Assembly (NCBI GenBank): GCA_050949565.1
Contig: JBMNFY010000015.1
Location: forward strand, 68,722-132,721
Origin: Kiritimatiellia bacterium
GTDB taxonomy: Bacteria > Verrucomicrobiota > Kiritimatiellia > RFP12 > UBA1067
Length of the DNA stretch: 64,000 nucleotides
Direction of reading: 5' to 3'
Within the stretch, counting starts at the first letter, position 1, and every line of letters begins with the position of its first letter. Made by a program: the position numbers and the translations under genes. The notes beneath the pieces are model-generated. The model was not told where the DNA came from. It did no database searches and worked only from the letters and a program-made list of their open reading frames with translations. Positions 10,241 through 53,781 of this stretch are shown piece by piece.

Positions 10241-11218
10241 ATGAGAAAGGTACTGTTGTTTTATGTCGTGACCATCGCGTTGATGTCTGCGGCCCAAAAT
10301 CCGGGCGCAAGACCCTTCGACGACGAGGCCATACGCGACATGCTTGAAGGTTTTGCGATCATGGAGGCGGACAATGAGGGCGATCCCCACCAGCAGAATC
10401 TGCCGACCGTGGCGGACTGCTATCGGATGATGGAGAAGCGGTGCGAGGAAGCAGGTGTTGACAAGCGGCGCATCCTCGACGTAGCCAAGGAAGAGATAGA
10501 CAAGTGTGCCGCCTACGTGAAAAGCACCGGGCGGACGTCCATTGCCATCAATGCGGTGAGGTTGCTGGACCTCGTGGCGCACTCTGGTGACCGTTCGCTC
10601 CTGCCCTATCTGGAGGAAAAGAGCCTTGATCCTGAAACCCTCAAGTTCATCCGTTCTGCCGCTGCGGAGGTCTATGTCAATATCGCGAGTGTGGAGGAGT
10701 GCATTGAGTTCATGAGAAAAGCCTTTGGCATCAACGCTGATAAGGGGTTTTGGCGATCCAGGGTCACTCCTCTGTTCTTGGGAAAAATGGAGTCCGCGAT
10801 TGCAAACCGCTCTGTTTCTGATGAAACCGAAGAACGGCTTTTGTCGCTTCTTATGGCATATACGCAAATCACATCGTATGCAAGCGAAGCCTCATGGGTG
10901 GATGATTTTCTGGTCAAACACTGTTACGGCTACAGGATGAGCGAGCAACGCTTATCGCTATGGAGCAGGATATTGGACGAGGATAAAGAAAATGAGTTGA
11001 AGAGAAAAAACTACCTTCCAATTAGAGAGGCGATTGAGGCCATCCCCCCCCGAAAACGCACTGACCTGCGCAAGCGTTTTCCCGATCTGCCGCCGTTACC
11101 GGGTGACGCGCCCGCTAGAAGCCCCGTGAAGGTCGCTATCGCCGTCGTCGCGGGAATTGTCGCAGTGGTAGCGGCATGGCTCATCTTGCGGCGGAAAAAG
11201 GCGCATGAAGCGGCGTGA
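10241..11218 (+). CDS. Partner 1: signal peptide, helical domain, DLRKRFPDLPPLP motif, C-terminal TM and basic tail (putative immunity/inhibitor)
   Basis: GAGGAG RBS; paralogous to 52951-53781 and to the split gene 11693-52482. Confidence 0.75.
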   Translation: MRKVLLFYVVTIALMSAAQNPGARPFDDEAIRDMLEGFAIMEADNEGDPHQQNLPTVADCYRMMEKRCEEAGVDKRRILDVAKEEIDKCAAYVKSTGRTSIAINAVRLLDLVAHSGDRSLLPYLEEKSLDPETLKFIRSAAAEVYVNIASVEECIEFMRKAFGINADKGFWRSRVTPLFLGKMESAIANRSVSDETEERLLSLLMAYTQITSYASEASWVDDFLVKHCYGYRMSEQRLSLWSRILDEDKENELKRKNYLPIREAIEAIPPRKRTDLRKRFPDLPPLPGDAPARSPVKVAIAVVAGIVAVVAAWLILRRKKAHEAA

Positions 11219-11222
11219 CAGC

Positions 11223-11678
11223 ATGGGCAATGCGGTGGAGTTGTACTTTGTGAATACGCTTGAGGGAGGGGCGGTTGGAGGGGTACGTCGGCCGGAGGGC
11301 ATCGTCATCGCGGCCAACGGCGATGGTCAAACACTGGCGCACGAGGTGATGCACAACTGCGGGCTTGAGGACATCTACACGGTCGAGAATCCCAATGGGT
11401 CGGATCCCAACCCGGTCTCCGGGCCGGTCTCCGCAGAGCGCATTCCCGCCGACTGGGGCGGGGGCTACTATCCGCCGGGGCTGGCGCAGCGGAGCCTGAT
11501 CACGCGGCTCCTCATGCGTGGGGAACACTTCGGCCCCGAACCTTCGTTTTCGGGAAGCATATGCCTGCCGCGCGGCACCGTCTACGGGTGGCGGAACGCC
11601 GGGAGCGGCACCGTCAGAACGCTGGGCAATGCCAGGGTCGGCCAGAGTGCTATCCAGCGGAACCCCGGCAGCTATTAA
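11223..11678 (+). CDS. Orphan metallopeptidase C-terminal cassette 2
   Basis: MGNAVELYFV...TLAHEVMHNCGLEDIY...DWGGGYY...RLLM; homologous to the last ~150 aa of 8830-10230; no signal peptide and no obvious RBS. Confidence 0.75.
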   Translation: MGNAVELYFVNTLEGGAVGGVRRPEGIVIAANGDGQTLAHEVMHNCGLEDIYTVENPNGSDPNPVSGPVSAERIPADWGGGYYPPGLAQRSLITRLLMRGEHFGPEPSFSGSICLPRGTVYGWRNAGSGTVRTLGNARVGQSAIQRNPGSY

Positions 11679-11729: not shown

Positions 11730-13171
11730 AAGGAGTTTCCCCAAAAAATCTGGTCATTCCAGAAAGACCAGTCCGAGCGGGTTTGATTCGGGGTCTGGCG
11801 GCTTGTAGCCGTACCATTTCCCGTGGCGCGTGAAGAGCCTCCCGAGGCCGTCGGCGACGGCGTAGTGGAGGAACTCGGCCACGCCGTAGATGCGCTTGGC
11901 GGCGTGGGTGATGTTGGTCGTCAGGATCTCGCAGCGCAGCCGTCCGGCCAGCCAGACGCAGTTGAAGTAGATGACGGCCAGCAGCAGAGCGACCATGTTT
12001 TTCAGGCGCCGGTACGTCAGGACCCGGATGTCCTCGAGGTTGTAGCTCTGCTTGACGAAGCGGATCGCGTCCTCGACGCGCCACCGCGTCAGATAGCCCT
12101 CGACGACCTGCCACAGGGACTTGCGCGACGTCGTCCCGGCCAGCGTGGTCAGCAGGAGCATCGGCCGCTCGCCGAACCCCTTCACCACGACCATGCGCAG
12201 GGGCTTGTCGGGCCTCTGCGGCAGGGCGACGGTCATGGCGCCGAACTCCAGCTTATAGCTTTTCACCCCGTCCCCCGTCTCCCTCGTGACGATCTCGATG
12301 TGCTTCATGGGGCAGGATGCCGCCAGTTCTTCGGCCAGCGCGGTCCGCCGGCCGTGGAGCAGGTTGCGGTTGCCCACGAGGCGCACGATGTAGTCCAGTT
12401 TGCGCCGGTCCAGGCCGTCGAACAGCCAGTCTCCGTCGCCTCCGCGGTCGATGACGTAGATGCCGCGCTTCTTCGCGCGGGAGCTGATCTGGTCGATGAC
12501 GCCGAGCACCTCGTCGTTCTGGCTGATGAAGCCCTCCGCCTCGCTCGACCACAGCCGCATGTGCAACGGCGTGATCCGGCGGCCGCCGCTCTCGCAGGCG
12601 ACCGCCAGGCAGGCGCTGTATCCGTTGCCGATCTCCCCCGTGCTCCCGTCCCGGACGCGGGCGAGATATTCCATCTTCTTCGCGTACAGCTTACGGATGT
12701 CGGTCGGGTCGATGACGATCAGCGTGTCCTGATGGACGTGACGCGAGCCCAGACGGGCGACAGCGTCGGAAATCCCCTGCTCGATGCCCTCGCTCCCGAG
12801 CATCCGGCTCAGCCTGTCCTCCAGTTTCTTCATCGATATCGGCTCGTCGAGCGCGCGGGCGATCCGGCTGAGCTTCACGTCCTGCGACGCCTGTATCCCG
12901 TAGACCATGTCGCCCACGAACTTGCCGAGCGGCTTGGAAAACCGGGGGGAAAGTTCCCCCAAAAAATTCTTGAGTTGCTCTCGCGCTTTGAACGCCGTTG
13001 CGCTATGATTCACGTCGGTTTTCCTTTCCGGTTTTTGGTTGAACCGCCATTTTGGCAGAACCGGCGGAGGAAAACCACTTTTTCACTTTCAGGCACGCCC
13101 GTCAGAGACGCATCCCCTTTGTTTTCAAGGACTTAGATATAATTGCCCCCGATTTTTTGGGGAAAGTCCTT
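11730..13171 (-). mobile_element. IS4-family insertion sequence
   Basis: Terminal IRs AAGGAGTTTCCCCAAAAAATC / GATTTTTTGGGGAAAGTCCTT (1 mismatch); 8-bp TSD TTTTATCT at 11722-11729 and 13172-13179. Confidence 0.92.
11754..13013 (-). CDS. IS4-family DDE transposase
   Basis: IDPTD, IDRGGD and the YREK signature YLTRWRVEDAIRFVKQ. Confidence 0.9.
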   Translation of the reverse strand: MNHSATAFKAREQLKNFLGELSPRFSKPLGKFVGDMVYGIQASQDVKLSRIARALDEPISMKKLEDRLSRMLGSEGIEQGISDAVARLGSRHVHQDTLIVIDPTDIRKLYAKKMEYLARVRDGSTGEIGNGYSACLAVACESGGRRITPLHMRLWSSEAEGFISQNDEVLGVIDQISSRAKKRGIYVIDRGGDGDWLFDGLDRRKLDYIVRLVGNRNLLHGRRTALAEELAASCPMKHIEIVTRETGDGVKSYKLEFGAMTVALPQRPDKPLRMVVVKGFGERPMLLLTTLAGTTSRKSLWQVVEGYLTRWRVEDAIRFVKQSYNLEDIRVLTYRRLKNMVALLLAVIYFNCVWLAGRLRCEILTTNITHAAKRIYGVAEFLHYAVADGLGRLFTRHGKWYGYKPPDPESNPLGLVFLE

Positions 13172-24467: not shown

Positions 24468-25694
24468 GTGGAGGGCGACCTGCGCTCGGCGGCGCTGTCC
24501 TTCGCGGCGAAGGCGCTCGGGGCGCTCATGTCCGGCCCGCTCCAGCAGGCCGCGGGCGTGGACGCCCCGGCCGGCCGGCGCGGAACCAGGACCGAGACGG
24601 TGCTCACCAGCGTGGGGGACGTGCCCTACACGCGGGCATACGTCCCCGGCGGCGACCGGCCGTTCCCGGCCGACGAGGAACTGGGGCTGGTCTGCCGGTG
24701 CACGCCGTCCGCAGCGAAGCTCCTCTGCCACGAGGCCGCCCGCAGCCAGTCCTACCTGCAGGCCTCGGAGAGCCTCGCGCTTTCCGCCGGCATCTCGGTC
24801 TCCGCCAGCAGCATCCACCGGCTCGTGCGCGCCGTCGGCCCGGACATGGAGGCGTGGGCGCTCTCCCGCACGCCGTCGCCCGCGGAGCCGGGGCGCGACG
24901 TCATCGTCTGCCTCCAGATGGACATGACCGGCGTGCGGATGCTGAAGCGGTATCTCAAGGGCGCCAGGGGCAGGGGCGGGGGGGATCCCAAGGGCCGCCA
25001 GATCAAGTGCGGGACGCTCTTCCTGATGGAGCGGGACGCCGAGGGCCGGTACCGGCGGATAAGCGGCAGCGCCGTGCACGTGATCTCCTTCTGCGACCCC
25101 GTGTCGTTCTCCGACGCGCTGGAAAAGGCGCGGCAGAAGCTCGCGGCCCCCCACGGGGCCACGCTGGTCGTCGTCGCGGACGGCGCGGAGTGGATCTGGA
25201 ACATCGTCTCGGACCGCTTCAAGGAGGCGTTCAGCATCATCGACTTCTGGCACGCCGCCGACCGGCTCCACGACCTCTGCGAGTTCGCCCTGGGGAAGGG
25301 GGACGCGGCGCAGGCGCTCTTCAAGGAGTGGCGGAAGAAGATGAAGGTGTACGGGGTGGACTGCGTGATCCGCCACTTCGAGGGAATGGAGGGCTCCCGG
25401 AGGAAGCTCAAGGGCGTCGCCAAGCGCCTGGCGTACTTCAAGAGGTACCGCGGGCAGATGCAGTACCGCAGGTTCCGCCGCGAGGGATGGCCGATCGGTT
25501 CCGGCGCGGTCGAAGGCGCCTGCAAGTCGCTGATCAAGCAGCGCACGAACCTCTCGGGGCAGCGCTGGTCGCCCGACGGCGCGCTGGACGTGCTCTGGGC
25601 GCGGGCGCTGATCACCGACGGGCTCCATGACGAGTACTGGAAGGAAAAACGGAGCCGCGAGGGGAAGCGCAGAGAGCCCGTGTTCGCGGCGTGA
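24468..25694 (+). CDS. ISKra4-family DDE transposase (true start uncertain)
   Basis: ADGAEWIW, IIDFWHA, GWPIGSGAVEGACK, SGQRWS. Confidence 0.85.
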   Translation: MEGDLRSAALSFAAKALGALMSGPLQQAAGVDAPAGRRGTRTETVLTSVGDVPYTRAYVPGGDRPFPADEELGLVCRCTPSAAKLLCHEAARSQSYLQASESLALSAGISVSASSIHRLVRAVGPDMEAWALSRTPSPAEPGRDVIVCLQMDMTGVRMLKRYLKGARGRGGGDPKGRQIKCGTLFLMERDAEGRYRRISGSAVHVISFCDPVSFSDALEKARQKLAAPHGATLVVVADGAEWIWNIVSDRFKEAFSIIDFWHAADRLHDLCEFALGKGDAAQALFKEWRKKMKVYGVDCVIRHFEGMEGSRRKLKGVAKRLAYFKRYRGQMQYRRFRREGWPIGSGAVEGACKSLIKQRTNLSGQRWSPDGALDVLWARALITDGLHDEYWKEKRSREGKRREPVFAA

Positions 25695-35809: not shown

Positions 35810-36268
35810 ATGGGCAACCTCGACCAACTCCGCGCCGCCGTCTCGCGCAGGCTGGAAAGCCTGCCCGCGCTGGCCGGCATCCCCGTGGTGCCGGAGGATA
35901 GGCAGAACATCAAGAGCGAGATCGACACGGCGCTCGGCAAAGCCGGCGGCCTCGTGATCACCGTGAGCATGGGCAATGCGCGCGGCGTCGCTCCTGCTGA
36001 TCCGCTGCCGCAGGCCGAGGTCGAGGTCGTGGTCGAATGCGCGGAGATCCCCGCGATCAACCGCGGACCGGCCGGACGCCAGATGCCGGCGGTCACCGCC
36101 TCTGTGCTGGCCGTGTGCGCCCTGCACCACTGGCCGTGGGAGCACGGCAACGTGCTCACGTTCGGTGAAACTCAATACGACCGCGACGACAAGACGTCGC
36201 TCGTCATCTACACCTGCATTTTCAACACGCGCGTCACGTTCGCCGCGCAACTAGGACTAGGAGAGTAA
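35810..36268 (+). CDS. Probable tail-completion protein
   Basis: Size and position between the connector and tail tube genes. Confidence 0.45.
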   Translation: MGNLDQLRAAVSRRLESLPALAGIPVVPEDRQNIKSEIDTALGKAGGLVITVSMGNARGVAPADPLPQAEVEVVVECAEIPAINRGPAGRQMPAVTASVLAVCALHHWPWEHGNVLTFGETQYDRDDKTSLVIYTCIFNTRVTFAAQLGLGE

Positions 36269-36270
36269 TC

Positions 36271-37211
36271 ATGCCCACCATCCAACGCAGCACCCTGCAG
36301 CGCGGCCCCGGCAATCTGACCTACGACAGCCTCACGCTGTTCTCGCAGGAGGACATCACCGCCGCCATCGAAATCGAGACGTGGCGTCCGAAAATCTCGA
36401 CGCACGGCGAAGGTGCGCCGCGCATCGCCGACGCGCGCGGCCAGATCACCTTCACGCCCGCCGGGCGCATCACGCCCGAGATCATCGCGGCGCTCTTCCC
36501 CGCCGGTTTCCGCAACCCGACCATCGGCGCGCGCGTCTTCCCGGCCGCAGACAAGCCGCTCTCGATCCACGGCGTAGACGGCGCGAAGCTTGATTTTGTT
36601 TCCGCCGCGCTGACCAAGATGCCGGGCCTCGCGCTCAGTCCGAAAGGCACGGCCTTCGGCGAGGCTGGCTTCACCGCGCTGATCGGCGACAACAAAGAGC
36701 GCAGCGCGGCAGGCTCGTTCTACACCGCCGCCAGCGCCGCGTGGTCGGGCGCGTTCAGCGATGCCGCGATCATCGCCGTGCCTTACTCCCGGCGTGTGGG
36801 GCGCCACCCGCGCTCCACACAGAGGAAGGCTGGAAGATCGACCTCGAAGCCCAGATCGAGCCGATTGTCGTGGACGGCATCGGCACCGTGGACTACGAGC
36901 TGACCGGCGTCACCGCGCGCGCCACCTGCCGGCCCGTGGACATGACCGCCGCGTCCCTCGCCGCCGCGCTGCGCCCCGAGGGACTCAACCTCGGCGCGTC
37001 CCTGCGCCAGAGCAAAAACCTCGTCATCACCGGACTCGCTGGCGGCCTCGTCGTCACACTCTACGATGCGGTCATGACAGCCGCCCCCGCTGTGTGGGGC
37101 GCGACAGCCAGCCGCGCCGGCGAGGTCACGTTCGAGGCCAGCCGCAAACTCGACGGCTCCGGTACGTCCGGCACACTGGGCGCAGTGTTCGAGATCGCCA
37201 TCGCAAGCTAA
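36271..37211 (+). CDS. Probable major tail tube protein, frameshifted near 36790-36810
   Basis: Beta-rich ORF continuing in a second frame to the stop at 37211; synteny. Confidence 0.5.
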
Positions 37212-37213
37212 CC

Positions 37214-37635
37214 ATGATCTACAAGCTCACAGACTCAAACGGCGGAACACCGCTCACGCTCGTTCGACGGGCCGGCGAGTGCTTCCGCCGACTATGCGCA
37301 AGGCCCCATCGGCGGCGAAGAGCGGTTCAGTGCGCAGCAGAGCGTGAGCGTGCGCCCCCTGATCCGCGCGGACGCCGCACTCGTCACCCCGCGCAAGAAC
37401 CATTCGCCGCGAGCTGCCCCTTCAGCGCGTTGCGGACATTCGCCACGCCGCAGCGGCGGCGCGCGCCTGGGCGGCGCAGCACACCCAGGCCGTGATCGGC
37501 CTCACGCGCCTCGTGATCAGCGGAGACGGCGGCGGCAGCGTCACGCTCTCTGGCGGCATCACCCGATGCGAGTGCCATGTGCGCGGCGTGTCTGTTCTCA
37601 TCGACTACGAATTCACCTACGGGGAGATCACATGA
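37214..37635 (+). CDS. Hypothetical tail-region protein, frameshifted
   Basis: ATG after the tube gene stop; TGA overlaps the next ATG. Confidence 0.35.
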
Positions 37636-38910
37636 AGCGTCACGTTATTCACTATTCGCTATTCATTATTAGTTTGTGCGCGCCAGCGTACGCACAGATC
37701 GCACAGCGATGGATCTCCGAGGCCTCGCGCCCGACCGCGCAAGAGATCACCATCTATCGCGGCGAGACCCTCGCGCTGGAGCCGACCATCACCGTCCACG
37801 GGACTCCCTACGCATGGCCAGACGAAACCGAAGTCACGCTGTGGTGGCAGTCATCCAACATGGGCGCGTCGTGGTGGAGCACACCCGCCGCGCTCGGCAC
37901 GGCCACCGGAGCGCTCCGCGCCGTGTGGTCGCCCGCCTGCGACTCCGGTGCTGACCGCTACACCTTCTTCATCCGTGCGTCCGCGCCCTCCGGCATCGCC
38001 TACCGCGCAAGCGGCACACTCATCATGCGTCATTCGCCCGGTGCAGTGCCCAACGCGCTGCCGCTGCCGACACCCGCGATTGACTTTGCAAGCATCGAAA
38101 TCCACAACGCGCCGTGGCTCTTTGAAAGCGACTGGCAGAGCGGCAGCAACGCCCTTGCAGGCGCCGTGCAGCAGGCGGCACAGACCATGCAGGCCGATGC
38201 ACAGGCCGCGCTAGATACGTTTGCGGCAACGAACATAGTGACGCGACTGGAGGCCGTTGATGGCTCGCAGTGGATTGACGGCACCGGAGCTGTTTGGCGG
38301 ATAGTTTCCGTGACGACCAGCGTAACGCGAGCATTTGTTGCCGTGCCGCCCGAGCCGGTGTTTGACGGCATCGCGCTTGGAGATGTGTGGGCTTATTCTC
38401 ACTATTATTCGGGCGGAGGCGAAACCAACTTTGCATTTCTTCCTTCCCATGACAGGTACTTGTGGCTGACCTGCTTTACCGGACGATCGTGGTCCGATCC
38501 CTACTGGATGATCTTACCGACACAGTTATATCAACTGGCTCCATTCGAGACGAACGAGCTGCACCTTGTCGATGTGGAAAACGGGTATCACGTTCATCTC
38601 GCGGAAACGAACTTGGTTGCGCTTGGCATCGCGACACAGTGCGTGGGGCGCGTAGCGTGGCTGAGCGACCTGTCCAACCGGACCACCGGGCAAGACGTAA
38701 ATGAAGCGATCGCCGCGCACGGACAACGCCCCCGCCGCGCACGGGCCGGCATTCGCGGCGCAACGCACGGGCCTGCTCGCGCAGACATCAAACATCGTGA
38801 ACGAGGCGGTCCTGAACATCACCGCGCCCGCCATCCTGCGCGACGGCGTGTGGTATCGCCAGGCGTGGGACACCAATCTCCAAACCACCGTATGGGAGCC
38901 CCGGCCATGA
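37632..38910 (+). CDS. Signal-peptide protein, possible fibre/baseplate-like (frameshift near 38725)
   Basis: MKRHVIHYSLFIISLCAPAYA|Q; EITIYRGETL. Confidence 0.55.
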
Positions 38911-39710
38911 TTTCACGCCCGCTTTTTTTCGCAATCTTCTTCGCGCTCTCAGTCAGCGCCCAGTCGTGGTACGACCTCACAGTCCACAACGCCGTGTTTG
39001 CCGGCACCAACATGGTCTCCGGCGAGATCCGGCCCGCCGGCGCGCTGCCCACGCTGGCAGATTTCAATGCCGCCAAGACCGAGATCAGCGAGGCCATGGC
39101 CGTCGCGTCCAACTCGTGGGACATCGCGCTCGCCGCGTCCAACGCCGCCGCCCGCGCCGCCGCCGACATTGCGGACGCGACCAGCAACGGCGTGTGGGAG
39201 ATCGTGTTCACCCTGTCCGCGCTGAAAGGCGTGGGCGCGTCCGACGACATCGAGTCGCGCACCGTGGGCTTCTCGGTCGAGACCACCCCGACAGGGCGAT
39301 TGTGCCACGCCGTCCAGTGGTTCTCTGCCGCGCCGCCGCAGATGCCCGATTTCGATTGCTCCTACTCTACAAACCTGATCCACATGGGCTTTGATCACAT
39401 CTCCGTCGGCACCTCGTGGCCGGAGACCTGCGGAGATCCGGAAGACTACGGAAAGCTGGGCGGGGCGTGCTACAGGGTGACCGCGCTCGTCCCGGCCGAG
39501 TGGGGCAGCGCATTTTTCAAAATCATCGCCACGGGATTTATTCTGCGCGGAAACGCGCTCCCCGTGGTCGGGGGCATCGCCGGCGGCGCGACCCACGACA
39601 TCGAGGTCATGGACGCCGCAGGCATGACGAACGTGACCCTGCACGTCCGTGGCGGCTTCGTTGTGGACACCAATCATCCAATCAGCCTGATCATGTACCA
39701 ATCGCCATGA
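38907..39710 (+). CDS. Signal-peptide protein
   Basis: MISRPLFFAIFFALSVSA|QSW; ATGA coupling at both ends. Confidence 0.6.
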   Translation: MISRPLFFAIFFALSVSAQSWYDLTVHNAVFAGTNMVSGEIRPAGALPTLADFNAAKTEISEAMAVASNSWDIALAASNAAARAAADIADATSNGVWEIVFTLSALKGVGASDDIESRTVGFSVETTPTGRLCHAVQWFSAAPPQMPDFDCSYSTNLIHMGFDHISVGTSWPETCGDPEDYGKLGGACYRVTALVPAEWGSAFFKIIATGFILRGNALPVVGGIAGGATHDIEVMDAAGMTNVTLHVRGGFVVDTNHPISLIMYQSP

Positions 39711-40737
39711 CGCTTTACGAGACATCACAGTTGGAGCTCGCCGCCGTCCTGTTCACCGTGACGGCCGCGCCCCTTGCCTGCCTTGTGCGGTGGCTGGTCC
39801 GCAGGCATCGGTGGCCGGCCACGCCCACGCTCTGCATGGCGTTCATCGTGTCCCTCGGCGCGGCCGCATTCGCGCTGGCCGACAGCGAGAACGGCAAGCC
39901 GGACGCCCCGCAAGTGCTGCGCTGGATGCGGCTCAAACGCGAGTGGGTGTGCTGGACGCACACCGTCAAGAACGAATGGGCAGAGTTTTGCGCCGCCGTC
40001 AGGCAGGGGTTCATCAGCATGCAGGGGCTGTACGGCGAGGTCCTGGACATCACGAACAGCCTGCCGGCAGACGCCGTGGCCCCGCCCGCGATGCAACTGC
40101 GGGTAAACCTTGTGGACAGCCAGAGAAACCAGAATTTCAAGGCGAGGCCCACCGGCCTGTGGGACAACGGGGACGGGACGTGGACCGTAGAGATCACCTC
40201 CAGCCGCGAGATTTCGGACGCCCCGACAACCATGATGTACCTGCGCAGACGTTCGGACGGCGCGGCGTGGTGGGTCGAGCACACGTCGAGTTCGTTCCCC
40301 GAAAACTCATCTCCGAACGCATACACATACACCTTCCAGATGCCGGTTGACGTGGAAGGGCACCTCGCCGTGGCAGATGAAGTGCTGCTCGGCGGCCCCG
40401 CGGCGGCCTCACCGTAGAGGGGCTGGTGCTCGTGGATCTGGACAAGGGCTGCATCTACGAAGGCGTGAACGGCCACTATATCATGGGCGACGGCCGCATC
40501 GTCCAGGTGAAGGGCGGGGTGTTCATGTTCGACGGCGCAAAGGCGCAGTCGACCGAAGGGCCGGAGCCAGAGCCGATGGCCAGGCAGGCGGCGGCAGAAC
40601 CCGCGCCGCGCGACGCCGTGATTCTGCGCGATCCCGTGACCGCCGCCAAGCCCGGGCCTGTCCCCGAGCCTGTCCCCGAGCCCGCCGCGCCGCCTCTCAA
40701 GCTGGCCATGCCGCCGTTGGATGGAGGTGCAAGATGA
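39707..40737 (+). CDS. Membrane/exported protein with a Pro-rich VPEPVPEP tail (frameshift near 40405)
   Basis: Two N-terminal hydrophobic helices; continuation in ORF 40426-40737. Confidence 0.5.
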
Positions 40738-41147
40738 TACAGACGCTCTGCAACCTCTACGCATGCACCGTCGCCGCCGTCTGGTCCGGCGTCGGCTGTG
40801 CGATGGAATCGAACGGCGACGTGATCCTGTGCGCGGACACCGCCGTGCGCGTGGAATACGGCTGCCTGTCGCTGCGCGCGGTCATCTTGAGCGGCTGGGT
40901 GGGTGTCGCCTGCGCCGTCATGATCCGCCGCGCGTGGCCGTTCCCGGCCGGCCTCGCGCTGGGCGCGCTCATGAGCTGGCTGCGCGTGTTCGCGCTGGTC
41001 GGCCTGGCGTGTATGCGGCCGCCATTGTTCCACGCACTGCACGCACGGTGCGGATACGCGGCGTTCGCAGCCGCTTCCCTGTGTCTCATTTTCGCGGTCT
41101 GCATGTATGTGACCGCACAGCTCAAAAAAAAGGAGAGTCAGAAATGA
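40734..41147 (+). CDS. Minimal exosortase/archaeosortase-like membrane protein
   Basis: VRVEYGCLSLR (Cys), SWLRV (Arg), FHALH..G (His) at the spacing of that family; GGAGG RBS. Confidence 0.6.
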   Translation: MIQTLCNLYACTVAAVWSGVGCAMESNGDVILCADTAVRVEYGCLSLRAVILSGWVGVACAVMIRRAWPFPAGLALGALMSWLRVFALVGLACMRPPLFHALHARCGYAAFAAASLCLIFAVCMYVTAQLKKKESQK

Positions 41148-41731
41148 AAAACGCAACAATCGTTCTTTTCGGCGATTCCTATACGGCGGGCAGGTTGCCG
41201 CACTCGCAGACGGACGGCGCGTTCGCAAAGCATCTGCAAGGCGTACGCCGCGACACCGCCGTAAGCGGATCGACCGCCGTCCAGTGGTCGACTGATATCT
41301 CTAAACAGATCTCCGTGTGCGGGGCGCCCGCCGACGTGGCGGTCGGCTCGCTCCTGGGCAACGATGCGCTTGCCGCGATGGCTGACGGCAAGATCACGCC
41401 CAGAGAGGCGCTTCCCGCGCTGGCCGCGCTCGCCCTGGTGCTGGCACAGGTCGCGACGTGCAAGCCCGTGGTGTTGATGCTGTACCCGAACCCCTACATG
41501 GGCGTTCCGGATCTGCATCCTGAAGCAGAGCGGGGCGTCGCGCTTCTAAACGCCGCGATCCGCACGGTCGCCGATGTGGTCAACGGCATCCCCTATACCA
41601 ATCCCGTCATGCCGCTCGATCTCGGCACCGTGCTGCGCCCCGAGCATTTCGACGGAGTCGACATCCACCCCAACGAGGCGGGGTATCAGGCGATGGCCGC
41701 AGCCGTCATGGATGTGATCGGGCGCATGTAG
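41144..41731 (+). CDS. SGNH/GDSL hydrolase
   Basis: FGDS, AVSG, LGND and DIHPNEAG blocks. Confidence 0.85.
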   Translation: MKNATIVLFGDSYTAGRLPHSQTDGAFAKHLQGVRRDTAVSGSTAVQWSTDISKQISVCGAPADVAVGSLLGNDALAAMADGKITPREALPALAALALVLAQVATCKPVVLMLYPNPYMGVPDLHPEAERGVALLNAAIRTVADVVNGIPYTNPVMPLDLGTVLRPEHFDGVDIHPNEAGYQAMAAAVMDVIGRM

Positions 41732-41794
41732 TTTTCACTCTCACCGTTAAGGCCGCTGTACGGCCGCAACAAAACAAAACAAAGGAGACAAACC

Positions 41795-42649
41795 ATGAAA
41801 GACGCGACAACCAACACCATCACGCCCCGCGACGGCCAAGAGACCGCCGCGCTCAACACCGGCAAGCAGATCGCCGCCGCCATCGGCATCATCGGCACCG
41901 CGCTCACCGCGCTGGCCGGCATCGTCAACGGCCTCGAATGGCTGGGCGACAACCTGCCGCTGCTCCTCACCGGGCTCGGCGGCATCGCCACCGGCGGCAT
42001 CACCTCCTACATCGCGGTGCGCCGCATGCGCGCGGACCGCGCCGCGAAAGCGTCGCTCGCGCTGGTCGCGCTCGGCCTCGCCGCGACCGGCTGCGTCGCG
42101 ATCCGCGCCAGATCAGACGGCGAGCGCGCGGACGTGTGGGCGTTCGGCACCGGCGCGGACTCCGCCGCCGCGTTGTCAAACGTGGCCGTCACCGGCCCCA
42201 GCACCAACGACGCCACCGGCGTCTCCTTCGACACCGGCAGCTCGCAGCAGCAGTCGCAGCAGGCGATCCAATCGCTGATCTCGCTGGGCGCGGCGCTCGC
42301 TCCTGTCCTGGCAGGCGGCGCTCCGGCCGCTCTCGCGCCGCCGTCCGCCTCTCAGGCAGCCCCCGCAAACTCCGGTTCTGTGGTTGCCGTTGACGGCGAT
42401 ACCGATGCAGACCCTGCAGGCTACAACGGCACTCCAGGGCCGTCAGGAGAAGGCATTTACGGACGCCCCTCCTGTTCTCGCTGCCAAGCATACCGCGCGG
42501 CGCACCCTGATGTGGCCGTCATCAACATTGATGACGCCTCCAACCGTGATGACCTGTGGGCAGCCCTCCGCCTTCGCGGCTTCACCGGCGCGACCGTCGC
42601 GCTGCCTGTCGCGGTCACGGCGGACGGCTACACAACGAATGCCAAATAA
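41795..42649 (+). CDS. Holin-like TM region, internal lipobox and C-terminal CxxC glutaredoxin-like domain
   Basis: Two TMs; LGLAATG|C; IYGRPSCSRCQAY...VALPV. Confidence 0.55.
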   Translation: MKDATTNTITPRDGQETAALNTGKQIAAAIGIIGTALTALAGIVNGLEWLGDNLPLLLTGLGGIATGGITSYIAVRRMRADRAAKASLALVALGLAATGCVAIRARSDGERADVWAFGTGADSAAALSNVAVTGPSTNDATGVSFDTGSSQQQSQQAIQSLISLGAALAPVLAGGAPAALAPPSASQAAPANSGSVVAVDGDTDADPAGYNGTPGPSGEGIYGRPSCSRCQAYRAAHPDVAVINIDDASNRDDLWAALRLRGFTGATVALPVAVTADGYTTNAK

Positions 42650-42740
42650 CACAACACCAAACTCAGGCAGTGGTGCGCCGGGCACCATAAGTGCGCAGGT
42701 AGCGCATCCCGGCTCTAACCCCTAACCGAAGGAACAAACC

Positions 42741-43172
42741 ATGAAAACACAAGCCACCATGATCGCCGCGCTCGCATGCGCCGCGCTCGTCACCGTCTGT
42801 GCGCGTGCGCAGTCGCGCCCAAGCTCGCTGGACTTCACGGTCGCGCTCACAGCCGGCCAGACCGCTGTCACGCAGGACGTCTCCCTCGTCGACTACGCGT
42901 TCGAGGTCGACCGCGTCGTCCTGTTCAACGACTCGTCCGTCACCTGCGCCGTCACCGTCGCCGCCGTCGACCTCGGCGTCACGACGCAGCTCGAGAGCTT
43001 CGCCCTCGGCGCGGCTTCCGGCGCGAGCCGGACACCCCGCGCGGCAGTCGTCACCGGCGCGTCCACCAACTACTCGCGCGCCATCGTGCGCGACCTGAAA
43101 GTGACCGTGAACAAAGCGACCAACGCCGTTCCCCTCACCATCCGTGGCCGCATCTTCGGCTATGGCCGCTAA
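42741..43172 (+). CDS. Signal-peptide beta-rich protein
   Basis: MKTQATMIAALACAALVTVCARA|Q. Confidence 0.65.
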   Translation: MKTQATMIAALACAALVTVCARAQSRPSSLDFTVALTAGQTAVTQDVSLVDYAFEVDRVVLFNDSSVTCAVTVAAVDLGVTTQLESFALGAASGASRTPRAAVVTGASTNYSRAIVRDLKVTVNKATNAVPLTIRGRIFGYGR

Positions 43173-43206
43173 CTCCCAACTCCCAACCCCTAACTCCTAA
43201 ATCACC

Positions 43207-44484
43207 ATGAGCGATCCCGCGACAACCGCAGCACGCTACCTCGCCTCCAAAAAGGTCGTGGCGACCGTGCTGTCGTCGCGGGAGATCTCGGAGCACATCC
43301 CCCGCGCCCTTCGGGACAACGCCGTGTTCAGTGCTCGCACCCTCTACGCCGAGCACCTCGCCGAGACACAGGCAGACATCATACGTCTGCTCGATGCGCG
43401 TAAGGGCCCCGCAGAAATCCGCACCGCCATGCAGATTCGTCTCGCCGCGCTGGGCTACGAGCCAGACCCCGATCAGCGCGGCGGACTGCAAGACCTCTCC
43501 AGCGACATGCGCACCAACCTCATCATCGCCATGCAGGAAGCCGAAGCGCGCGGCTATGCCGTATGGCGCAGCCAGCAGGACGAGGCCGTGCTGACCGTCT
43601 GGCCGGCGCAGGAACTCTACCGCGCCCAGTTCCGCCAGAAACCCCGCGACTGGCGCACCCGCTGGAACGAGGCGCGCGCCGATCTGGGCGAGGGCAACAC
43701 CAGCGCCACCTATGCCGTATCAGCATCAGGCCCGTTCGTCGCGTTGCGCGGCGACCGCATCTGGAGGCACCCCGCCGTCAACCGCTTCGGACGCCCGTGG
43801 CCGCCTTTCGATTACAACAGCGGTATGCGTCTGCGCGGTGTGAAAGCCTCGCAAGCGCGAGAAAAAAACGTGCTCAAAGGCCGCGCATTCCCCAAGCCTG
43901 CGCGAGATCCGATGGACGGCAGCGTCAGATCCTCGTCTGCCGCAGGAATGGACGCCGAGATCGTGCGCGCGTGGGCGGCCGCGTTCGGCGCACGCGCCCG
44001 CGTCTACAAGGGACGCGGCGGCATCCCCCGCGTGGCCGTAGCCCCTGACGCCGGCGCGGCGAGGCAGGTCATCGACGGCGCGTTATCGGGCGGCGACGCC
44101 ACGGCAGCCTTCGGCTTCCCCACCGCCGGCGCACTCGAAGAGATCAGCGCAGCCATCGGAAAGCCAGTGCGGCCCGAGATCCCGCTCCAAGTGTCCGCCG
44201 CGGACGTCCGCCACATCCTCAAAGCGCACGGCGCCGAAACGCGCACAGGGCAGCACCCCGTGACAACGGAGGACATCAAGCGCGTGCCTGAGATCGTGGC
44301 CGGCCCCGGACGCTGGCGCGCCAGCACACCGCAGGAAAAAGGATCGTATGAGGGCGATGCAGTGACCTTCGCGGCTGACACAGGCGAGCGTATCAGCTTC
44401 CGCGTCACCGCAGGGAAGAACGATCCACGCATCACGCTCAAAACCATGTGGATCGAAAAACAAAAAGACCGTCCCGCTGACTAA
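43207..44484 (+). CDS. MuF-like head morphogenesis protein with C-terminal PBECR-type nuclease-like domain
   Basis: WPAQELYR...PWPPFDYNSG; C-terminal VRHILKAHG...GQHPVTTEDIKRVPEIV...LKTMW. Confidence 0.65.
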   Translation: MSDPATTAARYLASKKVVATVLSSREISEHIPRALRDNAVFSARTLYAEHLAETQADIIRLLDARKGPAEIRTAMQIRLAALGYEPDPDQRGGLQDLSSDMRTNLIIAMQEAEARGYAVWRSQQDEAVLTVWPAQELYRAQFRQKPRDWRTRWNEARADLGEGNTSATYAVSASGPFVALRGDRIWRHPAVNRFGRPWPPFDYNSGMRLRGVKASQAREKNVLKGRAFPKPARDPMDGSVRSSSAAGMDAEIVRAWAAAFGARARVYKGRGGIPRVAVAPDAGAARQVIDGALSGGDATAAFGFPTAGALEEISAAIGKPVRPEIPLQVSAADVRHILKAHGAETRTGQHPVTTEDIKRVPEIVAGPGRWRASTPQEKGSYEGDAVTFAADTGERISFRVTAGKNDPRITLKTMWIEKQKDRPAD

Positions 44485-49115: not shown

Positions 49116-51395
49116 ATGTCAACCGTACTACGAAACATTCCCCATGCCCGATTTATCAGGCAGGCACGCTCGCCGAAAATGGCGCTGGTGTCCACGCAAG
49201 CGGCGCTCGACCAGGCGATTGAATCGCTCAAAACCGCCCCGTGGCAACGCGCGAGGCCGGGACTGACCGTCACCATGCCGGCCAGCGACCCCACGCAGAC
49301 CGCATCGTCAGAAGCCTACGACGCTTACAAGTTTTCTGGCGACTGCATCCCGCAGAGCGGCGAGCAAGCCGCGTTTGTCGGCATGGTCGCGTACAGGTTC
49401 AAAATCCCGTCCGGTGCGCTCGGCAATACACCGGTCACGCAGGTGGAACCTACGACCAGCGTGCGCTTGTACGCCAATAAGTTTTTGAGTGCCGGACTGC
49501 GTATCGCCGCATTTACGAGCAATGATGCCGACCCTAACATGCTCGGCTCGTGGGAACACATGCGCGGCGAGGTTGCAGGAAGCGGCGTGGGGTTTGTTGC
49601 CGGCCTGTTTGCTAACGAAGACGCTGGCACCAAGCGCGCCTCGAACCAGAGCGCCATCGTCTGCCCGCTACCATCCGGCGCGCCAGCCGCGCAATATCTC
49701 TGGATCATCGTGCAGCTCGAGGATTGGGCAGAAATTAAATGGGAGTATTGGATCGAGGGGGCCGGATTTCTGGAAGCGGATACCCTCTCTCTCGTACTCT
49801 CGAAAGACGGCGTCGAGCTGGACGAAGAGGGCGAGGAGTTTGTCTTCCCCGTCGCGCCGCAGGACTTCCATGAGCCATCACGGGTGTATGGTTTGGCGGC
49901 GTTGCCCCATGCTGGATTTGTCGGCCAGCTGTGGGGGGCATCAGGCGCACAGTTCGGTCGTGCGGTTGTGGATATTGCACGGATCGACTACTACAAAATC
50001 ATGGTGCTGGATGCCTTCGGCCACCTCAGCGTCTTCGACATCAACACACAAAAATACACTGAGCCGGACAGCCGCTTCATTCGCGATGATGCGAGGCCGG
50101 TCAAGGTCTGGGGTGAGATGGGAATCGACAACACCTTCGCCGTGCTGGTGCTCTACGACGATGGCAGCGTGCGCGCGAGAAAAAACAACTACACCGAATT
50201 TGCTGCAACCGCCGCATCACTCTCCGGCGTGGTTGACGTAGCCACGGATGGATGCAACGTGATCGTCAAGCTATCCAACGGCGAATATCAATCATTCAGC
50301 TATAATTCCCCCAGCTTGACTGCGGCGTTCTCATTCGCACCAACCTCGCCCGTCATCAAGGCCAGTATCTTTTCGGTCAATGAATCCACCTGGGTGGCGT
50401 GGTTTTTATGCGCGGACGGGAAGGTGCTCGCGAGCACCGGAACAGTCCTGCGCGCGAACGTGGTAGACATCGCCGCCTGGCGCAGAGGTGCGGCGATGCT
50501 GTCGGCCACCGGCACGGTATACGCTCAGGGAAACGACGACATGGGGATCGTCACCGACTGCGCCTCCCTGTCCGGCATCACACGCATCTGGGCAGGTATC
50601 GACGGGCTGGCCGCGCTCGGTGCAGACGGCACACTGACCGTCCTCGGCCTCAATAAATCTGAGGCCATGTCAAACCGTCCGGGCATTGATTTCCGCAACG
50701 CGGCCAAGATCACATTCGGGGGCGAGGGCGAAGATCCGCCAGCCCATCTGCCGCAGGTGTTGCATGATTCCCCGCAACTCCGCTACCGCTGGGATCGCTC
50801 AGAGTACCTCTCGGCTCCCCGTGATTTTTCGGCGGACGGCATGTTCGACAGCGACGCCTCGCGCGATACGCTTGTGCGCCTCGCAGTGTCCGGCGACGGC
50901 ACTCTAAGGCACGCGCCCTACGCAGGCACCGGCGCATACGGGATCGCCGCCAACCCGCAGACCGGCGGGCTGAGCATCACGGCATCTGCCGTTGGACTGA
51001 GGTTCAGCCGCCGCGCGACCGATTTGACGCCGACCAAGTTGCACTACTCATTGCCCGCGTTGCCGCACGGAGCAGGATCGCAATCGCGCTACATCCGCGT
51101 GGTCGCGCTGCTCGATCAGCATCCTGCTCCCGTCAACCCCATCGCAACGGCGGATGGATTCCGCACTATCTGGAGCGGTGCCGTGCCCGAGGGCTACCAG
51201 ATACTGGGTTCAGAATACCTAGAGCACAAAGGGTTTGAAAACAGCCGCTTCCTGCCGATTGCGGCGACGCCGTTCCAAGGCGTGATCTGGCTCATAGTTT
51301 TGCCGGTTCACTTGGAATTGAGCGGAGATTCACTTGCATTCAATGTAGAGGGAGACGGGTTTGCCGCCCAGCATGTTTTCTTGTACCGCGACTAA
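49116..51395 (+). CDS. Probable receptor-binding/tail protein with RCC1-like repeats
   Basis: GVVDVA, NVVDIAA, GTVYAQG and ADGTLTVLG repeats; last late gene. Confidence 0.5.
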   Translation: MSTVLRNIPHARFIRQARSPKMALVSTQAALDQAIESLKTAPWQRARPGLTVTMPASDPTQTASSEAYDAYKFSGDCIPQSGEQAAFVGMVAYRFKIPSGALGNTPVTQVEPTTSVRLYANKFLSAGLRIAAFTSNDADPNMLGSWEHMRGEVAGSGVGFVAGLFANEDAGTKRASNQSAIVCPLPSGAPAAQYLWIIVQLEDWAEIKWEYWIEGAGFLEADTLSLVLSKDGVELDEEGEEFVFPVAPQDFHEPSRVYGLAALPHAGFVGQLWGASGAQFGRAVVDIARIDYYKIMVLDAFGHLSVFDINTQKYTEPDSRFIRDDARPVKVWGEMGIDNTFAVLVLYDDGSVRARKNNYTEFAATAASLSGVVDVATDGCNVIVKLSNGEYQSFSYNSPSLTAAFSFAPTSPVIKASIFSVNESTWVAWFLCADGKVLASTGTVLRANVVDIAAWRRGAAMLSATGTVYAQGNDDMGIVTDCASLSGITRIWAGIDGLAALGADGTLTVLGLNKSEAMSNRPGIDFRNAAKITFGGEGEDPPAHLPQVLHDSPQLRYRWDRSEYLSAPRDFSADGMFDSDASRDTLVRLAVSGDGTLRHAPYAGTGAYGIAANPQTGGLSITASAVGLRFSRRATDLTPTKLHYSLPALPHGAGSQSRYIRVVALLDQHPAPVNPIATADGFRTIWSGAVPEGYQILGSEYLEHKGFENSRFLPIAATPFQGVIWLIVLPVHLELSGDSLAFNVEGDGFAAQHVFLYRD

Positions 51396-51802: not shown

Positions 51803-52486
51803 CCTCAACCCTTTGCTAAATCTCCTCACCTTGCGTGAAAACCCTCGACCGGGAAGCCCTCCCGTTTTTGGAGGAGAAAAGCTTCATGACGAATGCTCCT
51901 AGTTTTATCCGTGGACGCGCTGCTGAAGTGTATGTCAAGATCGCGGATGTGGAGGAGTGCATTGAGTTCATGAGAAAAGCTTTTGGCGTCAACGATGACA
52001 AAGGTTTTTGGCGTTTTTCGGTCAGCCGTCAATTCTTGGCAAAAATCGGAGCCGCTTTCGACGCCGAAGAAACCTCGGATGCGATCAAACAACGCGCGTT
52101 GCTCATCCTTCTCGAACACATGCAAGCACCGGCAAATCCCTCGGAAGCTTCTAAAATTGACGAGTTTTTGGCTCAAAAGTGCGAGGGTTACCGTCAAAGC
52201 TGGCAACGAATGGATGTGGCCCAACGTTTTCTCGGAGGCGAAAATGAAAAGGTGGACAGGCACTACAGGCTTATCCATGAAAGTGTTACGCAATTTCCCC
52301 CGGAACAGCGCATCGATTTGCGTAAGCGTTTCCCCGATCTGCCGCCGTTGCCGGATGACGTGCCCGCTAGAGGCCGCATGAAAGTCGCGTTCGCCATCAT
52401 CGCGGGGTTTGTCGCGCTCGCGGTGTGCGCTGTAGCGGCGTGGCTCGCCGCTCGGCGGAGGAAGGTGCGCAAAGCGGCGTGACAGC

Positions 52487-52945
52487 ATGGACAACACGAA
52501 CAGCATGGGCAACGCGGTGGAACTCTACTTCGTGGACACGCTGAACAGAGAGACGACTGCCGGTGTGCGTCGCCCAAAGGGGATCGCGATCGCAAGCGGT
52601 GTAGGTAGCAGAACCATCGCGCACGAGGTGTTGCACGACTGCGGGCTTGAGGACATCTATATTGCGGATGACCAAGGGAATCCTCTTTTAGAACTGGTCG
52701 CGGAGCAGAGCATTCCCGCCGACTGGGGCGGCGGTTATTACAACCCGTGGGTGCTCCAGCACGGCCTGATCAAAAGGCTCGTCATGCGCTCGTTTCTCAC
52801 CTCGCAGGAAGACGCTGGCACCGATCTGCCATCGGGGGATGTCCGTGGGTGGCATCACGGTCCGGGTGGCGGCGGGACATCGCTCATTCTAGGCCCTGCC
52901 AAGGTGGGCCAGTCGTCTATTGTAAAAACCCCGGGAAGTCATTAA
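52487..52945 (+). CDS. Orphan metallopeptidase C-terminal cassette 3
   Basis: MDNTNSMGNAVELYFV...TIAHEVLHDCGLEDIY...DWGGGYY...RLVM. Confidence 0.75.
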   Translation: MDNTNSMGNAVELYFVDTLNRETTAGVRRPKGIAIASGVGSRTIAHEVLHDCGLEDIYIADDQGNPLLELVAEQSIPADWGGGYYNPWVLQHGLIKRLVMRSFLTSQEDAGTDLPSGDVRGWHHGPGGGGTSLILGPAKVGQSSIVKTPGSH

Positions 52946-52950
52946 GGAGG

Positions 52951-53781
52951 ATGAAAATGAATGCACGTCAAATATCGTGCTACCTGATTGTTTGCACGGT
53001 CATTCTTTACTCCGTGTCGGTTGCGGCCAGCGATTACGCGGATTATTCGCGCCGCCCGCTGTCTGAAATGTTTGAGGTATACAGTAGGTTTAAAGCGAAT
53101 TTTCGGGCCGGCTCGAATTACAATGTGGGTGCCGCATCCGCGCTGATTGTCGCTGTCGGGGAAAAGGGCGGGCGCGAAGTGCTTCCGTTTCTGGAGGAGG
53201 AAAGCCTCGATCCCGAAATGTCCAAGCGCATCCGCTCTGCCGCCGCGAGAGCGTACGTCAAAATTGCAGACGTGGAGGAGAGCTTGAATCTGATGCGAAA
53301 ACTTTATGATGACCCTTCCTTGAGGTCATGGTACGACTACGTGAACAAATTTTTCCTACAGAAGGTGAAGTCGGAGGAGAAATCTTTGACAGACGAGGTG
53401 AAAAGTGACGTCTGCACTCACTTGCTTACGATTGTTCAGAATACGGATAGCGCGGGAGATGCGCTTGATGCTGAGTTCTTTTTGCGCGACTTTCTCCCGG
53501 GATACACCAACAGCAAGCAACGGGCGACACTGGTCCGGTACGCCAACACCGGCAACGAGTACATGACGAACAACTTCAACCCCATCAAGGCGCACTTCGA
53601 CAAAATCCCTCCAAAACAGCGCACTGACCTGCGCAAGCGTTTTCCCGATCTGCCGCCGTTACCGGGTGACGTGCCCGCTAGAAGCCCCGTGAAAGTCGCG
53701 TTCGCCATCATCGCGGGGATTGTCGCAGTGGTAGCGGCGTGGCTCGTCTTGCGGCGGAGAAAGGCGCATGAAGCGGCGTGA
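52951..53781 (+). CDS. Partner 3 (signal peptide, helical domain, DLRKRFPDLPPLP, TM, basic tail)
   Basis: AAGGAGG RBS; LPFLEEESLDPE...IRSAAA.YV.IA shared with partner 1; 3' end nearly identical to partner 1 at the DNA level. Confidence 0.8.
   Translation: MKMNARQISCYLIVCTVILYSVSVAASDYADYSRRPLSEMFEVYSRFKANFRAGSNYNVGAASALIVAVGEKGGREVLPFLEEESLDPEMSKRIRSAAARAYVKIADVEESLNLMRKLYDDPSLRSWYDYVNKFFLQKVKSEEKSLTDEVKSDVCTHLLTIVQNTDSAGDALDAEFFLRDFLPGYTNSKQRATLVRYANTGNEYMTNNFNPIKAHFDKIPPKQRTDLRKRFPDLPPLPGDVPARSPVKVAFAIIAGIVAVVAAWLVLRRRKAHEAA

Follow-up and report, generated by a model that had tools for sequence, protein, structure and literature searches.

A conserved late-operon module of Mu-like prophages encoding fibre-like proteins with predicted signal peptides

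A block of exported and membrane proteins in a Mu-like prophage

We analysed a 64,000-nucleotide stretch of a Kiritimatiellia genome (the window; GenBank assembly GCA_050949565.1, contig JBMNFY010000015.1, positions 68,722 to 132,721 of the forward strand), in which a Mu-like, transposable prophage extends from ~13.3 to 51.8 kb. Between its putative tail tube gene and MuF lies a block of seven genes, here termed A to G, led by the fibre-like gene A. Rather than an insertion of host genes, this block is a phage module that is conserved among relatives and has apparently not been described before. Export of the A family is well supported by sequence, and we infer that A attaches to virions.

The prophage carries a transposase, a MuB-type ATPase, a terminase, a PF06074 portal, a PF10123 gpI protease, a major head protein, PF07030 gp36, MuF and a tape measure, as identified with Pfam and PHROGs. 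A search for TG...CA ends with a 5-bp target duplication gave no convincing end pair. Single-base indels occur in several genes of the window sequence. Relatives of gene A were compared at 24 loci (L numbers), from Kiritimatiellota (15), Verrucomicrobiota (4), Lentisphaerota (1), unassigned genomes (2) and other bins (2); the two outlier bins, Porticoccaceae and Rikenellaceae, may be misbinned. The scan was keyed on a motif present in about half of the A family and so samples only part of it, and most of the loci are partial. The genes of the block and the relevant tail genes of the window are as follows.

36271..37211, + strand: putative tail tube, frameshifted near 36790, without a Pfam or PHROG match; named from its position and an earlier sequence-only reading of the window; family present in L003, L009, L016, L017, L018 and L024
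37214..37635, + strand: g0, a small frameshifted tail gene without a signal peptide, ATGA-coupled to A; homolog at the same position in L003 (L003:2089-2511)
37632..38910, + strand: A, fibre-like; signal peptide (~1-21), BppU_N-type immunoglobulin-like (Ig-like) domain (22-138), conserved linker, helical segment and swappable middle
38907..39710, + strand: B; signal peptide (~1-18), Ala-rich coiled-coil-like helix and beta domain; outside known families
39707..40737, + strand: C; two N-terminal transmembrane (TM) helices, predicted periplasmic beta domain and Pro-rich tail, without a C-terminal sorting helix
40734..41147, + strand: D, a small exosortase-family membrane protein (PF09721; 137 amino acids)
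41144..41731, + strand: E, SGNH/GDSL esterase (PF13472) without a signal peptide, directly 5' of the holin-like gene F
41795..42649, + strand: F; holin-like N-terminal TM pair, in-frame lipoprotein-type signal, low-complexity linker and C-terminal CxxC domain
42741..43172, + strand: G, a small beta-rich protein with a signal peptide (~1-23); weak match to phrog_5669 (E = 0.004)
49116..51395, + strand: last tail gene, without signal peptide or Thr-Asn enrichment and with a variable middle; candidate receptor-binding protein assembled in the cytoplasm

All seven open reading frames (ORFs) proposed by the sequence-only reading exist at the starts it gave. A and C are each interrupted in the window by a one-base frameshift (near 38720 and near 40400, respectively), and their intact forms are represented by P0001 (425 amino acids) and P0171 (342 amino acids). 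The same reading described the ORFs as mostly ATGA-coupled; overlaps of this kind occur at five of eight junctions (g0/A, A/B, B/C, C/D and D/E), while F, G and MuF follow gaps. The three membrane proteins it named (starts 39707, 40734 and 41795) were recovered by hydropathy, with two TM helices in C and three each in D and F. The G+C content at third codon positions (GC3) is 0.79-0.88 in B to G and 0.71 in A (0.64 in its variable part), compared with 0.72-0.88 in virion genes and 0.68-0.77 in four host genes.

Predicted export and fibre architecture of A

Signal peptides were called with an n-h-c heuristic made for this analysis, in place of SignalP, with small residues at -3/-1. By this heuristic, 135 of 154 A proteins and 13 of 14 B proteins carry a signal peptide; in both families, the n-h-c signal is thus conserved among homologs, as expected for substrates of Sec and signal peptidase I. 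The heuristic called none of the 141 canonical virion proteins taken from these loci, and the false-positive count among shuffled sequences was 53/2000. In the window, the three signal peptides previously noted (starts 37632, 38907 and 42741) are positive as A, B and G, the last being a single sequence; C, D, E and full-length F are negative. Among the loci, 22 of 23 A genes bear a signal. L009 was left out of this count because the mature A domain there is joined in frame to a preceding N-terminal piece of the tube gene (L009:1732-2574), which may be a deletion or a misassembly. The 19 A proteins missed by the heuristic comprise, by eye, 7 without a signal, 3 that seem truncated and 9 with long or atypical hydrophobic leaders. 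No C-terminal anchor or TM helix is present in A (0/154) or B (0/14), so both should be soluble after cleavage. A, B and G are probably exported and cleaved.

A dual start of A is unsupported: in the loci that could be scored, the region of the cleavage site has no conserved internal start with a ribosome-binding site. Export driven by disulfides is equally unsupported, A showing neither an excess of Cys nor a bias towards even numbers. Signal-less forms of A occur in two lineages of a tree with 67 rows (60 sampled signal-group members, 6 signal-less forms and the A of the window). One of them, P0079, matches tail-fibre PHROGs, which indicates that the A family also occurs as an ordinary fibre.

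In an AlphaFold model of residues 1-175 (mean predicted local distance difference test score (pLDDT) 89.4), the N-terminal domain of A has the Ig-like fold of BppU. The best VIA structure matches are the baseplate proteins of 80alpha (Z = 11.8; root mean square deviation 2.6 over 120 aligned residues) and TP901-1 (Z = 11.7; 3.0 over 116), followed by the N-domain of TP901-1 ORF48 (Z = 10.9), the NF5 baseplate (Z = 10.8) and the Sf14 neck (Z = 10.4); the best non-phage chain scores Z = 8.8. Foldseek concurs on a BppU-type fold (E of about 1e-6 to 1e-7). The top ESM Atlas cluster (score 0.90) is 90% viral, with BppU_N in 13% of its members, and serves as a lead only. At the sequence level, neither A nor the 94 homologs scanned match Pfam PF10651 (BppU_N), and a PDB sequence search with A gave zero matches. 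Six homologs (P0008, P0009, P0010, P0024, P0040 and P0116) have two or three BppU-like domain matches per chain.

Beyond this domain the family diversifies. Six close homologs of A have ~175 N-terminal residues in common and diverge completely thereafter. With the N-terminal domain as query, 1,011 clusters (50% identity) were matched, the listing covering the best 150; the set of 154 A proteins contains a few near-duplicates. Distal parts include BspA leucine-rich repeats (LRR), a YadA head and a Gly-rich domain, while 88 of the 94 homologs scanned had no Pfam match at all. PHROG tail or tail-fibre families were matched by 10 of 88 signal-bearing homologs. Motifs that we take to mark fibre shafts occur in 28 of 147 A proteins (shuffle mean 2.3), and a short C-terminal motif, in a strict pattern, in 27 of 143 (shuffle mean 0.3); all signal-less forms lack this C-terminal motif.

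The genomic setting is that of a tail gene. Each locus has one copy of A, and our reading of the gene orders places it after the tape-measure, hub or last tail gene in 18 of 24 loci, after the tube in 4 (as in the window) and after gp36 in 1; in one further locus the position could not be assigned. Virion genes neighbour A in 23 of 24 loci, and the remaining locus shows only module genes. A therefore combines a conserved N-terminal anchor, a swappable distal region and a tail gene slot; it looks like a tail fibre in architecture and may work like a BppU_N fibre. Of the proposals made in the sequence-only reading, virion appendages that mature in the periplasm thus gain a fold, fibre motifs and a fibre slot for A; the exosortase and the esterase are not core parts of the module (see below). 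Neither of the conditions under which that reading would have been refuted applies: the signal peptides are predicted and conserved in homologs, and the block is no random insertion of host genes.

Thr-Asn bias, partner genes and exit

Among all dipeptides, Thr-Asn (TN) shows the strongest over-representation in the variable parts of signal-bearing A proteins (653 versus 210 expected); Ser-Asn ranks second. Beyond residue 170, TN exceeds expectation in 132 of 138 such forms. The enrichment extends to B-like, C-like and other signal-bearing module proteins and to lipoproteins of the loci (2.7-5.4 fold), and is absent from core virion proteins (1.0) and the 49116 family (0.9). The six signal-less A forms have one TN versus 4.4 expected. 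In the window, exported proteins contain 14 (shuffle mean 3.8; 0/2000 shuffles reach 14) and core virion proteins 9 (shuffle mean 8.4); C by itself has only one. Classical N-x-S/T sequons are not enriched. The presence of this bias in signal-bearing but not in signal-less or core proteins suggests a common modification in the envelope. TN may be the site of that modification, perhaps glycosylation, or may reflect a structural preference.

A similar split was seen in the slot of the last tail gene. Four loci have a large, TN-rich gene there with a signal-like leader and a nearby Cys (L008:7612-9900, L011:7688-9979, L023:7773-9914 and L021:8599-9876), together containing 24 TN versus 7.2 expected, while 13 proteins without a leader are near expectation. 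The 49116 family, in the same slot, is signal-less; its homolog in L017 matches residues 1-257 and 576-759 (tblastn).

Small signal-peptide proteins with a common C-terminal motif were also observed between the major capsid and gp36 genes (L002:9127-9516, L016:5656-6114 and L021:2395-2649), which suggests that exported proteins also fill a head-decoration slot. Homology of G to these proteins is unproven (probability 1.1).

Downstream of A, predicted exported or membrane genes follow in 19 of 19 loci with downstream sequence, and gene orders reveal a lipobox-bearing gene in 15 of these. A, B and the holin-plus-lipoprotein recur in L003 and L016, similarly arranged. Counterparts of B, sharing 22-24% identity with it, were identified in L003, L004 and L016, with L016 the only direct BLAST match; those of C, in L003 and L016, come from alignment and position at 13-18% identity. 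B and C may be paralogs (hhalign E = 8.7e-4, probability 23), and neither is detectable in L007, L009 and L017. A second module type follows A in L005, L008, L011, L012, L019, L020, L021 and L022 and comprises a TM-anchored family and a signal-bearing basic family (8 loci each). Homology of these families to B or C is unproven (TM family versus C, hhalign E = 0.026, probability 1.9). In L017, A is followed by a LamG-domain protein with an Arg-rich, Tat-like leader (L017:10840-11793).

D, E and G have zero tblastn matches in the 24 loci and are therefore accessories; the exosortase and the SGNH esterase are variable extras outside the module core. D matches PF09721 (E = 3.3e-6; 27.1 bits versus a cut-off of 25.7) and, weakly and below the cut-off, TIGR04178 (E = 0.018), and Cys, Arg and His occur in its sequence in the expected order, which we take to be the catalytic Cys-Arg-His triad. 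A second PF09721 exosortase is fused in one ORF to a membrane-anchored protein directly after A in L022 (L022:3291-4229), and is not a close relative of D (BLASTP E = 2.3). Six-frame searches of the loci gave no further exosortases, so the family is present in 2 of 25 loci including the window. Cognate PEP-CTERM substrates, with a C-terminal motif, TM helix and basic tail, are absent among homologs of A, B and C; C itself was rejected as a substrate, as the VPEP repeat lacks a following TM helix in 15 homologs. The SGNH esterase recognised earlier is confirmed in E by PF13472 (E = 1e-13), with a PHROG lipase match at E = 0.004.

F resembles a holin-lipoprotein fusion. Its topology and lipobox were read from its sequence, with a lipoprotein-type signal starting at an internal Met78 (42026) and Cys100; a Pfam holin match was obtained only for its positional counterpart in L016 (PF09682, E = 3e-4, below the cut-off), where the lipoprotein is separate. 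The fusion pattern recurs in L007:11438 and L009:3449, and L017, like L016, has a split version. A glutaredoxin identity for the F C-terminus was dropped in the absence of Pfam and PDB support; the thioredoxin-like CxxC assignment was made by eye only.

The earlier reading had also recognised no endolysin. Consistently, Pfam and PHROGs scans of the prophage ORFs gave zero lysin families (74 of 103 listed stop-to-stop frames or pieces, most of the rest already covered), although a divergent enzyme could be missed. Scans of locus genes other than core and host genes (74 + 99 in two scans) also gave zero, including in L002, where the pre-terminase region is visible. A non-canonical lysis module, another option raised before, is in keeping with F and the undetected endolysin. 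The slot adjoining the holin or lipoprotein holds SGNH in the window, peptidase C14 in L006 and DUF1353 in L020 and L021. DUF1353 or His-Asp-motif proteins adjoin the lipoprotein gene at L011:13084-13515, L019:3821-4246, L020:7829-8236 and L021:12770-13177. These may be phospholipase A2-like; PHROGs labels the DUF1353 family as a tail assembly chaperone.

Elsewhere in the window, MuF (43207-44484) has a PBECR3 nuclease-like domain at its C-terminus (PF18812, E = 2.3e-5, below the cut-off). Two ORFs labelled transposase-like by eye lie in the left prophage flank (12003-12908) and next to the repressor (24468-25694, for which a Pfam search gave nothing), and may influence prophage inducibility. 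The prophage interrupts a repeated host cassette (10241-11678 and 51835-53781), in which proteins at 10241, 51835 and 52747 share a C-terminal arrangement of a nearly identical Pro-rich motif, a TM helix and a basic tail and alternate with short HEXXH peptidase-like ORFs (11205 and 52487). This cassette resembles a toxin-tip/immunity array, and its C-terminal tails could be sorting signals.

Proposed assembly route, alternatives and known systems

The most probable route, at about even odds, takes the fibres out by way of Sec; they would mature in the periplasm and become attached to the particles at the moment of exit, once the holin has opened the inner membrane. On this view, the block would provide fibres and exit functions to a family of Mu-like prophages that reside in Kiritimatiellia and related Planctomycetes-Verrucomicrobia-Chlamydiae (PVC) bacteria. 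In the late phase, A, a BppU_N-anchored and probably trimeric fibre with interchangeable tips, would pass Sec with its partners B and G; all three, once freed of their signal peptides, would fold in the periplasm and probably be modified at Thr/Ser-Asn, and C may be an inner-membrane tether or assembly platform. Head and tail assembly would take the usual cytoplasmic route. Opening of the inner membrane by the holin part of F would allow particles to reach the periplasmic fibres, whose BppU_N domains would dock on the baseplate or neck. The outer membrane would be the target of the lipoprotein portion of F. In T4 assembly, fibres can likewise be added last to finished particles. The wider proposition, that a large family of PVC tailed phages has a two-compartment assembly in which appendages modified in the periplasm at an undescribed Thr/Ser-Asn motif are clipped on during endolysin-free exit, giving virions with envelope-type modifications, is tentative and rather doubtful.

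Several points weigh against periplasmic fibre assembly. All signal-peptide calls rest on our own heuristic, and 78 of 88 signal-bearing A homologs have no tail-annotated PHROG match. The BppU_N Ig-like fold could be reused on the cell surface, and the separate signal-less receptor-binding candidate at 49116 means that A may be dispensable for the particle. B lacks a confident fold: its AlphaFold model has a mean pLDDT of 50.9, VIA returned coiled-coil rows only (best Z = 5.6) and Foldseek no viral match under E = 0.07. Nine sampled host exported proteins show no TN bias, leaving the modification idea without host-side support, and the comparison with signal-less A forms draws on two lineages only. 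A tblastn search of 50,697 phage records (INPHARED) with four queries (A, P0037, P0054 and the capsid protein) gave zero matches, and thus no cultured phage. Finally, two sources describe for Kiritimatiella a Gram-negative wall with peptidoglycan, together with Sec and Tat (PMC5148204; PMC5303756); the particle must cross this layer, and no means of crossing was found. With lysins undetected, either a muralytic enzyme is truly lacking or it escapes recognition.

Some of this evidence would suit envelope conversion, the main alternative and the third option of the sequence-only reading, in which fibre genes have come to serve the lysogen as periplasmic or surface proteins (adhesins, receptor decoys or superinfection exclusion), anchored by C, the exosortase and the lipoprotein and never part of a particle. 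The signal peptides, the TM anchor of C, the exosortases in 2 of 25 loci, the adhesin-type tips (BspA LRR, YadA head) and the receptor-binding candidate at 49116 all fit this possibility. We nevertheless regard it as unlikely, because the genes are translationally coupled within the late operon and a sigma-70 search of 36000-44000 (a weak test) gave no promoter match, because BppU_N is retained across 1,011 clusters, and because A is present once per locus, lacks a C-terminal anchor, sits mostly in the fibre slot and has virion-gene neighbours in 23 of 24 loci.

Alternatively, the module could serve mainly to release particles without an endolysin: the envelope would be spanned by C, B and the lipoprotein, A would dock particles at the exit site and perhaps stay behind, and E or other hydrolases of the same slot would remodel the envelope. 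The hypervariable tips of A, which fit receptor recognition and not a fixed machine, make this improbable despite the zero lysin matches in the window and scanned locus genes, the lipobox-bearing genes in 15 of 19 loci and the SGNH, peptidase C14 or DUF1353 proteins beside the holin or lipoprotein. B and C are, moreover, undetectable in three loci, DUF1353 maps to a PHROG annotated as a tail assembly chaperone, and divergent endolysins could have been missed in loci that are mostly partial.

Much less probable still is conventional assembly with a real signal, the virion pool of A folding in the cytoplasm through an alternative start, leaky targeting or late Sec shut-off. Signal-less A in two lineages implies that A can occur without export, and L009 has the mature domain behind a tube fragment; however, the scorable loci lack a conserved internal start with a ribosome-binding site, and the TN bias runs along the full length of signal-bearing forms. 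The chance of a random host-derived insertion or frameshift artefact, as the indels in A, C and other window genes and the unmatched D, E and G might suggest, is close to negligible, since A and C are both known in intact, full-length form, phage late operons carry A repeatedly, with B and the holin-plus-lipoprotein similarly arranged in L003 and L016, and the GC3 of B to G lies within the phage-gene range.

To our knowledge, assembly of tailed-phage particles is regarded as an entirely cytoplasmic process. A fibre family of more than 1,000 clusters, whose sampled members mostly bear signal peptides, points to a second assembly compartment. If periplasmic assembly holds, fibres would gain access to periplasmic folding and modification, and the question arises how phages cross peptidoglycan without a recognisable endolysin. 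The TN bias may mark an undescribed protein modification in PVC bacteria, and the natural signal-less variants, together with the TN signature, make periplasmic assembly directly testable. Even under envelope conversion, a virion-appendage fold would have been redeployed across a whole family to the cell envelope, for which no precedent was found in the literature searched. One preprint assigns BppU-like domains to tail proteins and invokes signal peptides solely in connection with unrelated plasmid proteins (bioRxiv 10.64898/2026.02.21.707213). A full-text literature search, with most subscription papers outside its range, gave no description of this module, of signal-peptide tail fibres, of phage exosortases or of the TN motif.

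Compared with known systems, the exosortase/PEP-CTERM resemblance is partial: D and the L022 fusion match PF09721, with the same Cys-Arg-His order, whereas D is only 137 amino acids long and phage-borne, and no substrate with a C-terminal sorting helix occurs among A, B and C. The prophage has the same transposase, MuB-type ATPase, terminase, portal, protease, gp36 and tape measure as Mu-like prophages, and differs from Mu-like phages in that no recognisable endolysin or Rz pair was detected. Its exported module occupies the interval between tube and MuF, while in most relatives it follows the tail genes.

As far as is known, BppU_N proteins assemble in the cytoplasm. A has in common with these baseplate and fibre proteins (TP901-1 ORF48/BppU, 4v96 and 3uh8; 80alpha, 6v8i; NF5, 9m8o; Sf14 neck, 9c39; Bas63 connector, 9mt4) the N-terminal Ig-like fold, a helical segment followed by a variable distal part, and a late-operon location. 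It differs in its Sec-type signal peptide and TN bias, and its identity to the structures is ~6-13%. Other exported phage proteins include spanins, lipoprotein morons and filamentous-phage coat proteins. The fOg44 endolysin also carries a signal peptide (PMC6116005). Both these proteins and those of the A module are late proteins that use, or are predicted to use, the Sec pathway of the host. The known examples serve lysis or conversion or belong to non-tailed phages, whereas A has the predicted fold of a tailed-virion appendage.

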